Origin: a virus
Taxonomy: Duplodnaviria > Heunggongvirae > Uroviricota > Caudoviricetes
Length of the DNA: 27,343 nucleotides
Direction: 5' to 3' (one strand)
Virus record (IMG/VR): IMGVR_UViG_2695420565_000003
Under the pieces are notes generated by a model. That model was not told the origin of the DNA. It saw only the letters and a list, made by a program, of their open reading frames with translations, and made no database searches. How positions within the stretch are numbered: position 1 is the first letter of the stretch; every line of letters starts with the position of its first letter. Position numbers and translations under genes: made by a program. Shown in pieces: positions 1 through 27,343 of the stretch.

Positions 1-127
1 CTCCTCCGGCAGAAGCAGAAAAAGCTTATTATGCTTCCATCGGAAACGATGATCTGGCAGCCTGAGTTCACAGATAAAACACTCTCCAGGAAACCCGGGG
101 CGGTTCAAACAGATTAGCTCTCTGGAT

Positions 128-1500: not shown

Positions 1501-1587
1501 ACAACCCCCTTAAATCTTAATACCCGTATTTATCAAAATATCAACAATTTAATAAATACCTTCATATTTCGTAATGAGGGTAATTAC

Positions 1588-7801: not shown

Positions 7802-7830
7802 TATGTAAATACTCCATAAAGGGGGTAACT

Positions 7831-24217: not shown

Positions 24218-24226
24218 TCAATAAAT

Positions 24227-24250
24227 ACCCTCATAGAATCTTATGGGGGT
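24227..24250 (+). other. Stem-loop after the 227-aa gene
   Basis: ACCCTCATA-GAATCT-TATGGGGGT (9-bp stem with one G-U pair). No T-run. The downstream arm doubles as the GGGGG RBS of the next gene. Confidence 0.3.
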
Positions 24251-24255
24251 ATAAC

Positions 24256-24612: not shown

Positions 24613-24966
24613 ATGTTAAGTAAGCATTTTTCTCGCAAGGAATTTAAATGTAAATGCGGAAAATGTGATTATGATACAATCGACGCTGAATTACTGGTGA
24701 TTCTTGAGGATGTACGAGAGCACTTCGGGAAGCCAGTAATTATTAACAGTGGGAACCGTTGCCCGACTCATAATAAGAATGTTGGCGGCGCAACCAATAG
24801 CTATCATGTTCGAGGCCGTGCGGCTGACATTGTTATCAAGGGTGTCTCGCCTGATATTGTTCATGCTTATCTTGATGGGAAATATCCTACTCAATACGGC
24901 TTAGGAAAATATAAAACCTTTACGCATATTGATTCCAGATCAAAAAAATCACGGTGGAATGGATAA
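24613..24966 (+). CDS. Endolysin, peptidase M15-type (L-alanyl-D-glutamate / D-Ala-D-Ala peptidase fold)
   Basis: 'SGNRCPTHNKNVGGATNSYHVRGRAADI' and 'THID' match the zinc-peptidase M15 signature. RBS AAGGGGGTAATATG. No signal or SAR sequence. Confidence 0.8.
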   Translation: MLSKHFSRKEFKCKCGKCDYDTIDAELLVILEDVREHFGKPVIINSGNRCPTHNKNVGGATNSYHVRGRAADIVIKGVSPDIVHAYLDGKYPTQYGLGKYKTFTHIDSRSKKSRWNG

Positions 24967-24972
24967 AACAAA

Positions 24973-24997
24973 AGCGCCTCTGGTGGGCGCTTTTTTG
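24973..24997 (+). terminator. Rho-independent terminator after the endolysin gene
   Basis: AGCGCC-TCTGGTG-GGCGCT followed by TTTTTTG. Confidence 0.75.
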
Positions 24998-25111
24998 TTA
25001 GAATATGCTGGCGACGTTAGCTATATTTCTGACCATTTTTTCATTATAGACAAATATACCGCAGAAGATAAAGTGGTATTTGATGAAGCAGATCCGTCAC
25101 TGGTTGAAGCA

Positions 25112-25315
25112 ATGAAAGAACCGGAACCAGTAGAAGAAACTCCGGTAGTGGAACCAGTCATTGAAGAAGTTCAGCCAGCAGTTGAAGAAGTACCAGAAGT
25201 TAACGCAGAATCTCCGGTAGCCAACATTTTCTCTGACGAGGCAGAACATCGTTCTCCGGTACACGACACAGAAACATTTTGCGATCTTACTGGTTTCCAA
25301 AACTACAATAATTAA
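25112..25315 (+). CDS. Small acidic Pro/Glu/Val-rich protein (67 aa from this ATG; start uncertain)
   Basis: The track ORF (24929..25315) starts inside the endolysin gene and crosses the terminator, so the real start must be internal: GTG 25073 or ATG 25112. 'MKEPEPVEETPVVEPVIEEVQPAVEEVPEV...'. No strong RBS. Confidence 0.3.
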   Translation: MKEPEPVEETPVVEPVIEEVQPAVEEVPEVNAESPVANIFSDEAEHRSPVHDTETFCDLTGFQNYNN

Positions 25316-25325
25316 TTCTTATAAA

Positions 25326-25362
25326 TAGTAGTGAATATTATTTTATTGAGGATTCACTACTA
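25326..25362 (+). promoter_or_regulatory. Perfect 11-bp inverted repeat spanning the RBS and start codon of the 25362 gene
   Basis: TAGTAGTGAAT-(15 nt, containing TGAGG)-ATTCACTACTA. The right arm ends at the A of the ATG. Confidence 0.5.
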
Positions 25363-26360
25363 TGAATAATACTTTAGCAAAGGATATCGAATTTACCGCA
25401 AAAAGCAAACGTGCGACCCCTCCGGTCGAATATGAAACCAGAATCATTAAAGTTTGTCAAGCGCATGGATGGTTATACAGTGGTTTTGTGCTTCCTGTAA
25501 AGAAACCATTCCAGAACACCAAAGTTTGCATAGAAGTTAACGGAAAGGTTAAAACGCCATGTATTAGTCATGTTCTAACTGGTCAGTTTACTGGCAAAGA
25601 TAGAGTATCACCGCCTAAGAAGAAGTTTAGATTTACCGAAGAAGAACACTTAGAAAACGCTCGCAAGTTCTACAAGCCGATAGGGTGGGATGTGTTAGGT
25701 CTGGCTGAACCTTATCAGGGTGTTGACACTAAACTAATTCTTCGTTGTAAGTGCCACGGAAAGATTCACAAGAAAGGTGATTTACACAATAACCGCAGAC
25801 AAGGCGGGTTAACATGCCCTTTGGTTAGGGGGGTACTTAAATCAATTCAGAATGGTAGAAAACAGGTTATCAGAAACAAGTTTGCACAGCGCCCTATGCA
25901 CTTTTATCTAATTCGTGTTGGCGAGAAGTTTTTCAAATATGGAATTACCACTCGCAAAGATCCGATGCAACGGGTAAGAGAACACCAGAAGCACACCAGC
26001 GAGAAAATCACCTTTGAATGCTCACATTTGTTTAACATTGGATGGAAAGCTGGTGATTTAGAAATGGGGATTAAAAAGAATATTCAGGGCAAGAAAATCC
26101 CACGTAAGGTAATGAATAGCGGATTCACAGAAACGCTACCGATTAGCAAGCTGAAAGATGTTAAATCATTCATCAATGAATACATCCACACCAACCCATC
26201 TAAGCCAATGTATTTTGATGATACCAACGCAATCAATCTGAACAACTACATTAGTGATGAAGACATAGAACGAGATTTATCGCAGTGGATGAATGCACCG
26301 TTAGCTGATTTAATACCGGAAGACTTAGAACTCGATTTAAGCCCATTAGAGACACTCTAA
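25362..26360 (+). CDS. T5orf172 / GIY-YIG-like domain protein with an N-terminal Cys/His-rich region
   Basis: 'FYLIRVGEKFFKYGITTRKDPMQRVREHQ' has GIY-(x10)-YIG spacing followed by Arg residues, and the later 'SGFTETLP' resembles the T5orf172 GxTEWF box. The N-terminal half has 'RCKCHGKIHKKGDLH...CP'. Confidence 0.55.
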   Translation: MNNTLAKDIEFTAKSKRATPPVEYETRIIKVCQAHGWLYSGFVLPVKKPFQNTKVCIEVNGKVKTPCISHVLTGQFTGKDRVSPPKKKFRFTEEEHLENARKFYKPIGWDVLGLAEPYQGVDTKLILRCKCHGKIHKKGDLHNNRRQGGLTCPLVRGVLKSIQNGRKQVIRNKFAQRPMHFYLIRVGEKFFKYGITTRKDPMQRVREHQKHTSEKITFECSHLFNIGWKAGDLEMGIKKNIQGKKIPRKVMNSGFTETLPISKLKDVKSFINEYIHTNPSKPMYFDDTNAINLNNYISDEDIERDLSQWMNAPLADLIPEDLELDLSPLETL

Positions 26361-26375
26361 CGCAATTAAATTAAA

Positions 26376-26397
26376 AAGGGGTACGAATGTACCCCTT
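26376..26397. terminator. Bidirectional terminator between convergent genes
   Basis: Perfect AAGGGGTAC-GAAT-GTACCCCTT hairpin with A/T-rich flanks on both sides. Confidence 0.6.
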
Positions 26398-26433: not shown

Positions 26434-27343
26434 TTAAATTCCAAATTCCTGTAATGGACCTGGTATTTCCTCTTCTGGCTTCCAGTCTTTATCTGTCAGC
26501 ATGTCTAAACATGGATGCAGAACAAGCCCGTTACTCTCCAGAATCTGCCTATCATTGATAGTTTTCAAATCGACAAAGATTTGTCCTTTCCTCGGTCCTC
26601 TTGAATTTTCTATTACAACTCTCTGGGTCTTGCCATCAATGTATTCCAATACAAACAAGTTTTTGTATTTGTCAATCCTGCTACACCCGATCCGTTTTAG
26701 AGCTTGCTTAATCTTAAACCGGACCTTAATGCGATCCTCGTTATAAACATCTTCTAAATCAAATTCTGCGAGCTTCTCCCAGCCTTGAGAGTCCACAGAA
26801 TACATTTCCTCTTCTGCCATCTTAATCTGATTGTAGAGTGTTTCACGCTCGCTATTGAGGGTAGTAATCTGATCGGCTAGCTCCTTCGTTGCTCCTGTCA
26901 TAGCAGAAAGGGCAATCAGGTTATCAATCTTGCGTGATATTTCATCAACCTGTACTTTCAACGCCGGAACCGGATTAGCCTTGTCCTCAGCAACCCAGAT
27001 TTTATCAGCCAGCAATTGCAATACAGCTTTCTCTAATTGATCACCTCGAAAACTCCAGTTTGTATGCACACATGCAATACGACTAGAGCGCATTGCATCG
27101 CATGAATAACGATATTGGTTAGGCCGTTTGTTAGTTCCTTTCACCTTAACCATAGCGGAACCGCAATGTTCACATTTCAGCAGATTAACACCACTAAGCA
27201 GGGGGATCGGTTTAGCTTCTTCTTTGTCTCCATAGTTACATGCTCTAACACCAATTGAACCGCCCCGGGAATCCTGGAGACTAAACTTCCTGAGAAAGAG
27301 GTAAACAGGATGACTAAAAATACTCGTTTTTCCCCTGAAGTCC
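26434..27343 (-). CDS. Large serine recombinase (integrase-type), C-terminal ~302 aa; the 5' part lies beyond the window edge
   Basis: The frame is open to the window edge upstream of the track start. It contains the zinc-ribbon signature 'LLSGVNLLKCEHCGSAMVKVKG...YRYSCDAMRSSRIAC', followed by a coiled-coil segment. TAA stop at 26434. Confidence 0.8.
   Translation of the reverse strand, partial: DFRGKTSIFSHPVYLFLRKFSLQDSRGGSIGVRACNYGDKEEAKPIPLLSGVNLLKCEHCGSAMVKVKGTNKRPNQYRYSCDAMRSSRIACVHTNWSFRGDQLEKAVLQLLADKIWVAEDKANPVPALKVQVDEISRKIDNLIALSAMTGATKELADQITTLNSERETLYNQIKMAEEEMYSVDSQGWEKLAEFDLEDVYNEDRIKVRFKIKQALKRIGCSRIDKYKNLFVLEYIDGKTQRVVIENSRGPRKGQIFVDLKTINDRQILESNGLVLHPCLDMLTDKDWKPEEEIPGPLQEFGI

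Follow-up and report, generated by a model that had tools for sequence, protein, structure and literature searches.

A perfect inverted repeat at the start of a nuclease gene

What does a perfect inverted repeat do when it lies over the start codon of a nuclease-like gene? The question is raised by the viral record IMGVR_UViG_2695420565_000003, a stretch of 27,343 nucleotides (nt) that we refer to, at its full length, as the window and in which positions are counted from the first letter. The gene encodes a 332-amino-acid predicted nuclease of the T5orf172 family, and the window makes up most of an integrated E. coli element. We conclude that the repeat is probably an RNA-level translational gate on this homing-endonuclease-like gene, laid out on the plan of T4 late genes. 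Direct reading of the sequence confirmed what the initial annotation had reported, namely 11-bp arms around a 15-nt loop with the right arm reaching the ATG: the arms TAGTAGTGAAT (25326–25336) and ATTCACTACTA (25352–25362) are perfectly complementary, the loop ATTATTTTATTGAGG contains the Shine-Dalgarno (SD) sequence GAGG, and the A of the nuclease ATG (25362–25364) is the final base of the 11-nt 3' arm. One further pair, A25325–T25363, extends the repeat to a 12-bp stem of ATAGTAGTGAAT with ATTCACTACTAT (Table 1). In a repeat search of the 27-kb window it ranked first among 18 local inverted repeats, and the search extended the arms to 23 nt at 83% complementarity.

The initial annotation had offered two roles for the repeat, an operator for a dimeric DNA-binding protein or an mRNA hairpin that sequesters the ribosome-binding site. 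When the RNA was folded, a stable hairpin was obtained: the 39-nt hairpin RNA reached −13.3 kcal/mol, compared with −3.7 ± 2.0 kcal/mol in dinucleotide shuffles (z −4.8; none of the 200 reached the same stability), energies across folds ranged from −13.3 to −14.9 kcal/mol (z about −5), and the hairpin still formed in RNA contexts of 101 nt and 141 nt. RNA beginning at 25333 was unstructured (z +0.2), and the mean unpaired probability from SD to AUG was 0.18–0.19 in long RNA versus 0.41–0.63 in RNA from 25333. A hairpin is thus the most likely form of the repeat, with an amendment to the sequestration that had been proposed: in the window version the paired part is the spacer between SD and AUG together with the A and U of the AUG, and the SD itself lies in the loop. 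A search of known RNA families in Rfam returned sub-threshold chance matches only, none of them at the hairpin.

The 5' arm also overlaps a TATAAATA box that the initial annotation had not mentioned. The window has no other copy of it (1 found versus 1.8 expected, hence not over-represented). In T4, TATAAATA at −13 to −6 constitutes the late promoter; the T at −13 varies in RB49 and others, and the Aeh1 box reads CTAAATA (PMC1524935), so TAAATA is the shared core. No sigma-70-like promoter was found at the repeat on the + strand, and a sigma-70 promoter there was rejected for that reason. We propose that RNA reading through from upstream would contain both arms and form the 12-bp stem, in which the SD–AUG spacer and the A and U of the start codon are paired (most relatives would have the SD paired as well, in an inner stem), and that the nuclease would not be made from this folded RNA. 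If transcription starts about 6 nt past the TAAATA box, as at T4-type late promoters, the RNA would begin at about 25333, would be missing 8 nt of the 12-nt 5' arm, would not fold and would be translated. The box in the 5' arm is therefore likely to supply the release mechanism.

Conservation of the leader among relatives

Thirteen distinct homologous leaders share TAAATA-R-TAGTGA and CTA-N-TATGA without any change; their sequences upstream of the box cannot be aligned, and in 10 of 18 E. coli genomes homology of the cassette begins exactly at 25321. All 15 distinct homologous leaders folded (−6 to −15 kcal/mol), in two designs. In the window version the 12-bp stem is uninterrupted and the SD lies in the loop; the majority have an outer stem of 8–9 bp and an inner stem in which CUU or CCUU, from the 5' part of the loop, pairs with GAGG of the SD. 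Pair 17–33 is C-G in 10 leaders, U-A in 3 and broken in none, pair 16–34 occurs in three types (A-U, C-G and U-G), and pair 9–41 shows one double change from G-C to A-U, one wobble and three breaks. Covariation in the leader stems is limited but real. In loci L008, L010 and L011, conservation of the leader exceeds that of the backbone genes at its flanks. The leader motif together with the gene was found in 17 IMG/VR contigs and in no GTDB representative; metagenomes gave 6 matches, and of the 3 that were opened 2 stand in the context of this prophage and 1 is a chance match.

Could the palindrome nevertheless be a fortuitous, functionless product of AT-rich intergenic DNA? The intergenic regions are indeed AT-rich, and the count of TATAAATA does not exceed expectation. 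However, the stability of the hairpin departs from shuffles by a z of about −5, its stems covary and have parallel instances at other genes (see below), and the same hairpin is kept before homologues whose synonymous sites are saturated (pS 0.67–0.85), so the repeat is more than chance. We consider a fortuitous origin most improbable.

TAAATA boxes and sister hairpins across the element

TAAATA occurs 20 times in the window, and 13 of these copies, on both strands, precede 11 gene starts by 15–80 nt in the sense orientation. By comparison, hexamers of the same composition reached at most 8 of 44, and TAAATA in antisense orientation gave 2. All four WATAAATA octamers lie 36–42 nt upstream of start codons, and boxes often directly follow terminators. 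Four genes, namely terL, a gene for a 96-amino-acid protein, a holin-like gene and the nuclease gene, have a hairpin whose stem sets in within the last 2–3 nt of the box and which holds the SD or the AUG; the first three of these, of which the 96-amino-acid gene has its box and hairpin just after a terminator, were likewise absent from the initial annotation. A start 6 nt past the box would cut 6–8 nt of the 5' arm at all four genes. Orthologues of the holin-like gene in L008, L009 and L011 keep the box and the hairpin with three unrelated stems (CCCTCATA:TATGGGGG, GTATGAA:TTCATAC and CTTCTAT:ATAGAAG), which, on comparison of these leaders, gives in our view the best support for the idea that what is conserved is the RNA fold and where it stands with respect to the box. 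Since the same device precedes terL, the 96-amino-acid gene and the holin-like gene, the control is not special to the nuclease: the tight control suggested for the nuclease-like protein is plausible as a hairpin gate, but it is not nuclease-specific. The device may be the element's general way to limit some genes (terminase, holin-like, nuclease) to promoter-proximal transcripts.

Table 1. Positions of the features described in the text (z, stability relative to shuffles)
Feature	Position	Strand	Remarks
TATAAATA box	25320..25327	+	core TAAATA 25322–25327; last three bases form the stem base
5' hairpin arm ATAGTAGTGAAT	25325..25336	+	start at 25333 would remove 8 of 12 nt
Loop, 15 nt	25337..25351	+	SD GAGG at 25348–25351
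3' hairpin arm ATTCACTACTAT	25352..25363	+	SD–AUG spacer and A, U of the start codon
Gene for 332-amino-acid T5orf172-family (GIY-YIG clan) predicted nuclease	25362..26360	+	open reading frame, homology
terL (ATG 1588): TAAATA and 9-bp hairpin TACCTTCAT/ATGAGGGTA over SD	1553..1582	+	−10.4 kcal/mol, z −4.0
96-amino-acid gene (ATG 7831): TAAATA and 6-bp hairpin TACTCC/GGGGGT over SD	7806..7827	+	−6.7 kcal/mol
Holin-like gene (115 amino acids, ATG 24256): TAAATA and 12-bp hairpin ATACCCTCATAG/TTATGGGGGTAT over SD	24222..24252	+	−15.3 kcal/mol, z −5.0
118-amino-acid open reading frame upstream of the nuclease gene	24959..25315	+	
Terminator-like hairpin and T-run just after the endolysin stop	24970..24998	+	inside the 118-amino-acid open reading frame
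ACCGGAA microhomology, left copy	25120..25126	+	
ACCGGAA microhomology, right copy	26315..26321	+	within the last nuclease codons
Bidirectional intrinsic terminator AAGGGGTAC-GAAT-GTACCCCTT	26376..26397	.	between the convergent nuclease and recombinase genes

The sister hairpins also bear on the operator, in which a dimeric regulator or the nuclease itself would bind the half-sites TAGTAGTG and CACTACTA as DNA and repress transcription. Precedents exist: I-TevI represses its own late promoter through an operator resembling its homing site (PMC2988022), and promoter DNA is bound by CapR-domain proteins (PMC8096241). The outer arms, moreover, are nearly invariant and do not covary freely, and a similar leader (TATAAATACTAGTGTAAT...ATTCCACTATG) stands before a gene for a 155-amino-acid protein elsewhere, which could mark a shared operator. 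On the other hand, in our own reading of the homologous leaders the spacing of the arms varies by about 16–21 nt, roughly half a helical turn, and therefore fits a rigid dimer operator poorly. The motif also stays unchanged before DNA-binding halves that are only 27–36% identical or carry an extra repeat, arguing against co-evolving autoregulation, the covariation of the inner stem includes the SD, and the sister hairpins have the same geometry with unrelated sequences. An operator is accordingly unlikely, and of the two roles first suggested for the repeat it is the mRNA hairpin that is favored, the dimer operator being disfavored by the variable arm spacing and the unrelated stems elsewhere.

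A different account retains the RNA hairpin and dispenses with the release: transcription would start upstream, the hairpin would be present on every mRNA as a constitutive damper or 5' stabiliser, and TAAATA would be another signal, such as one for RNA processing, or a stop-rich spacer. The start site at TAAATA is a predicted one, no cognate sigma factor was found in scans of the element, TAAATA is, judged by the consensus, a poor sigma-70 −10 element with no sigma-70-like site found, and TAGTAGTGA does provide stop codons when read directly. This account leaves several regularities without a role, however. TAAATA lies directly after terminators, where a new promoter is needed; it keeps a strict sense-strand bias on both strands of the element; and the stem always starts inside the box, so that a start 6 nt downstream truncates the arm, a regularity that would be purposeless in a damper. 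We consider the damper rather unlikely.

A translational gate released by initiation at the box thus remains the reading that we prefer, and several observations weigh against it. With the SD in the loop of the window version, occlusion may be partial. Strong hairpins are present at only 4–5 of about 15 TAAATA-led genes, and the promoter role of TAAATA is one that we infer from position only. Scans against PHROGs and Pfam, covering the larger open reading frames (annotated left-arm genes and main window frames), detected no sigma factor and no gp55- or gp33-like protein in the element. In the leaders, 6 of the 9 outer-stem pairs never vary, and pair 9–41 is broken in three leaders and pair 14–36 in six; such invariant and broken pairs point to a sequence-specific constraint beyond pairing. 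Finally, conservation of the leader in L012 and L024 stems partly from closely related backbones and not from selection. As these backbones confound it, we rejected the notion that leader invariance reflects selection purely, and the conservation argument rests instead on the divergent lineages L008–L011.

Relation to T4-type late genes

A late promoter inside a hairpin that sequesters the ribosome-binding site is known from I-TevI, I-TevII, I-TevIII, segB, mobE (of Aeh1), e and soc (PMC2988022, PMC3014915), and a hairpin gate with a promoter in its stem is textbook T4 biology. In Krischvirus loci, we observed WATAAATA 28–53 nt upstream of inh, uvsW, uvsW.1 and gene 51. The leader described here resembles the T4-type gate in that a TATAAATA-type box overlaps the 5' strand of the hairpin, the 3' strand masks the site where translation of a nuclease or lysis gene begins, the predicted start about 6 nt past the box would delete the 5' strand, and the genes so equipped are homing-endonuclease-like and holin-like. 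It differs in its host, an integrated siphovirus-type element of about 37 kb with a serine recombinase and not a T4-like phage; in the lack of gp55, gp33 and gp45 genes from the element; in that the boxes of the element agree in the TAAATA core only; in the placement of boxes before genes on both strands, including the non-structural arm; and in the position of the SD in the loop of the window version. Because the gp55, gp33 and gp45 genes are absent and the start is a prediction, we do not file the leader as a member of the T4-type switch.

The novelty lies in the setting: an integrated element other than T4 carries T4-late-type boxes on its transcription units, beside DNA exchanged with T4-type phages. 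Should the TAAATA boxes be promoters, either this non-T4 temperate family would possess an unrecognised factor of gp55-like specificity, or the element would be tied into the late transcription machinery of T4-type phages, a group whose exchange of DNA with the element is plain to see (gp37/38, inh and uvsW). We also considered that a superinfecting RB49-like (Krischvirus) phage supplies the gp55-modified polymerase that reads the boxes, which would be genuine late promoters of the T4 type. In that case the lysogen would not express the nuclease, there being no sigma-70 promoter and the read-through RNA being folded shut; the gene would be switched on only in the late phase of a T4-like phage, as an infection-triggered anti-phage or homing nuclease. 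With boxes before packaging, tail and lysis genes, no recognisable replication or transcription genes, and Krischvirus-derived DNA (gp37/gp38 and inh, and in relatives uvsW/uvsW.1), the element could, over its whole 37 kb, be a satellite-like hitch-hiker of T4-type phages. We judge this superinfection scenario quite unlikely.

The predicted nuclease protein

The description of the gene product as GIY-YIG/T5orf172-like with a Cys/His-rich N-terminal half largely held up. The protein comprises two putative, degenerate CapR-type zinc-finger repeats (about residues 20–75 and 93–155), a predicted nuclease domain (about residues 175–280) and a conserved acidic tail (residues 318–332). Its putative zinc finger reads CxCH (129–132)...C152 and not the full CxxC...CxC, with C129 and C152 nearly invariant. 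In place of GIY...YIG it has FYL (181–183) followed after 8 residues by KYG (192–194); Y182, G194, R204 and E234 are invariant in 66 family members, in which K192, E257 and T258 are at least 90% conserved, and the domain conforms to the alpha/beta fold of GIY-YIG nucleases.

Searches with hidden Markov models connected the protein to nucleases through phrog_681 'endonuclease' of PHROGs (3e-20) and through relatives, but the window protein itself stayed under the Pfam thresholds: MUG113 (PF13455) gave an E of 0.13 (13.3 bits, cut-off 22.3), CapR (PF21817) an E of 0.014 (16 bits, cut-off 24.2; residues 102–134), and T5orf172 (PF10544) no match. Among the 66 relatives, Pfam matches were to CapR in 47 (best 2.4e-46), DUF4379 in 16 and DUF723 in 13, and, at E<=1e-3, to MUG113 in 20 and T5orf172 in 6, so that membership of the window protein in T5orf172/MUG113 would be transitive only. 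A sequence search of the PDB with the family profile gave no match. The family is small (89 representatives at E<=1e-3 among 1.8 billion proteins), and the gene is under purifying selection (dN/dS 0.09 against L007; pS 0.67–0.85 in more distant pairs). It appears largely right to call the protein a predicted nuclease of the T5orf172/GIY-YIG clan with a homing-endonuclease-like architecture.

An acidic, leucine-containing tail EPEDLELDLSPLE[AT]L (residues 315–332, 26304–26357) is found in all prophage versions, including 394-amino-acid forms that are 36% identical, and is absent from the homologue of phage JK32. It persists as the C-terminus of the fusion frame in the deletion allele described below. 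It may be a candidate partner-binding peptide, perhaps clamp-binding-like.

T5orf172 homing endonucleases with CapR/DUF723/DUF4379 zinc-finger repeats have been described in T5 and as ICP1 Gp165 and Gp174 (Barth et al., 2023, PMC10448857). The window protein resembles these in its putative N-terminal CapR-type repeats, its C-terminal T5orf172/MUG113-like domain with conserved Y, G, R and E, and its location, a variable 'nuclease island' on the border of DNA that has been exchanged; moreover, one Krischvirus carries the homologue JK32_00173 as an insertion between uvsW and uvsW.1. Unlike them, it lies below Pfam thresholds, occupies, under purifying selection, a single fixed position in a prophage family that occurs in E. 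coli, Salmonella and Proteus, and ends in the acidic tail that the phage homologue lacks. PLE CapR is described as a DNA-binding repressor with a homing endonuclease as its origin (PMC8096241). PLE CapR and ICP1 Odn are comparable in combining a CapR-type module and/or a T5orf172 nuclease with an integrated element beside DNA exchanged with a lytic phage; in contrast to PLE CapR, the catalytic-type Tyr, Arg and Glu are intact in the window protein, a predicted nuclease. The locus offers a clean natural example of T5orf172/CapR nucleases at the boundary of DNA exchange between lytic and temperate phages.

The genomic slot and its alleles

Homologues of the nuclease (36–98% identity) always lie between the endolysin and recombinase genes, in prophages of E. 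coli, Salmonella and Proteus. The gene is rare (18 of 5,426 complete E. coli genomes) and often deleted. The common 'empty' E. coli allele is a 1195-bp deletion between ACCGGAA repeats, which leaves a frame of 65 codons joining an inh fragment to the last nuclease codons as its C-terminus. A second deletion allele, in IMG/VR contigs L030 and L039, retains the full leader and seven codons (MKLAYAA*) followed by the sequence of the post-gene terminator. We considered the gene-less E. coli allele as a pre-insertion homing site and rejected it, as the deletion lies within T4-derived DNA and the gene's own 3' end. Among the alleles compared, no precise allele lacking the homing endonuclease gene and retaining a target was found; the gene-less alleles are deletions, and the slot is shared across genera. 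In Krischvirus JK32, by comparison, the homologue (JK32_00173, E 7e-23) lies between uvsW and uvsW.1, which are adjacent in RB49, SSG23 and Cognac, making it a true insertion.

Upstream of the leader, positions 25056–25298 are a fragment of T4-type inh (inhibitor of prohead protease) with 80–85% DNA identity to the middle of Krischvirus inh, and orthologous frames in L007 and L009 match phrog_1051 (Inh) at profile positions 43–175 of 229. The frame of 118 codons here begins within the endolysin gene, 8 nt from its end, crosses the endolysin terminator hairpin and, after 24959–25055, continues into the inh part, as a putative chimera. Other versions of the slot contain uvsW and uvsW.1 (about 74% nucleotide identity to Krischvirus) or short T5orf172 nucleases on the opposite strand. 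Recent import of a promoter–hairpin–gene cassette together with inh from a T4-like phage was also considered and rejected: in the searches of IMG/VR, metagenomes (3 of 6 matches opened) and GTDB representatives the leader and gene were found only in this prophage family, and the element-wide TAAATA–hairpin design and the paralogous leader of the 155-amino-acid gene likewise undo the idea.

The prophage element

The integrated E. coli element, most of which lies in the window, measures about 37 kb, judging by the complete copy in NZ_CM136169.1, where it is inserted in hicB. Its genes include terL, portal, a protease–capsid fusion, a gp37-like fibre, tape measure, tail tip and M15 endolysin, followed by the convergent large serine recombinase; the left arm carries terS, a Rha/Ant-like regulator, small genes without assigned function, an iteron array and another T5orf172-type nuclease. 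No replication enzymes, repressor or sigma factor were recognisable in the left arm. Over 2.6 kb, the gp37-like long-tail-fibre gene (9453–13067) matches Krischvirus gp37 with about 80% nucleotide identity; together with a gp38-like adhesin gene at 13773–14279 it makes up a further block of T4-type DNA, the second in the element. Near these genes, the open reading frames 8537–9370 and 13125–13598 both match a major-tail-protein family. Both ends of the window (1–107 and 27256–27343) are termini of an IS3-family insertion sequence, which we take to be IS629, and the window therefore has thousands of matches in E. coli and Stx phages. The right-hand copy interrupts the serine-recombinase gene, and homology to intact copies stops at 27255.

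Just past the right end of the window, a second TATAAATA occurs within the palindrome CGATATAAATATATCG (L001 6825–6867, minus strand), 42 nt upstream of a gene for an 81-amino-acid signal-peptide protein that itself lies upstream of the recombinase gene; it is kept in L007 and L012 and counts as one more instance of the box, and the protein has no homologue in the phage collection. The leader of the 155-amino-acid gene (L053 16093–16143), TATAAATACTAGTGTAAT...GAGGATTCCACTATG, is like the nuclease leader in having the box, TAGTG...CACTA arms and GAGGATTC, and the likeness may reflect paralogy of the two leaders or an operator in common. In the left arm of the element in NZ_CM136169.1, about nine iterons CCTACAC(T/A) at L053 15430–15570 form an array within 1.3 kb of gene-free sequence, which is probably the replication origin; no initiator protein was identified for the array. 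The element family has up to three further nuclease genes of the phrog_681/T5orf172 type (L053 10622–11686; L003 3399–3980; L007 2878–3474; L010 1836–2873; L012 3276–3845), one (354 amino acids) lying beside attL and another (345 amino acids) upstream of the endolysin gene. The short nucleases, of 189–198 amino acids and on the minus strand, have the common upstream motif GCCTATAAG(A/C/T)TAAA.

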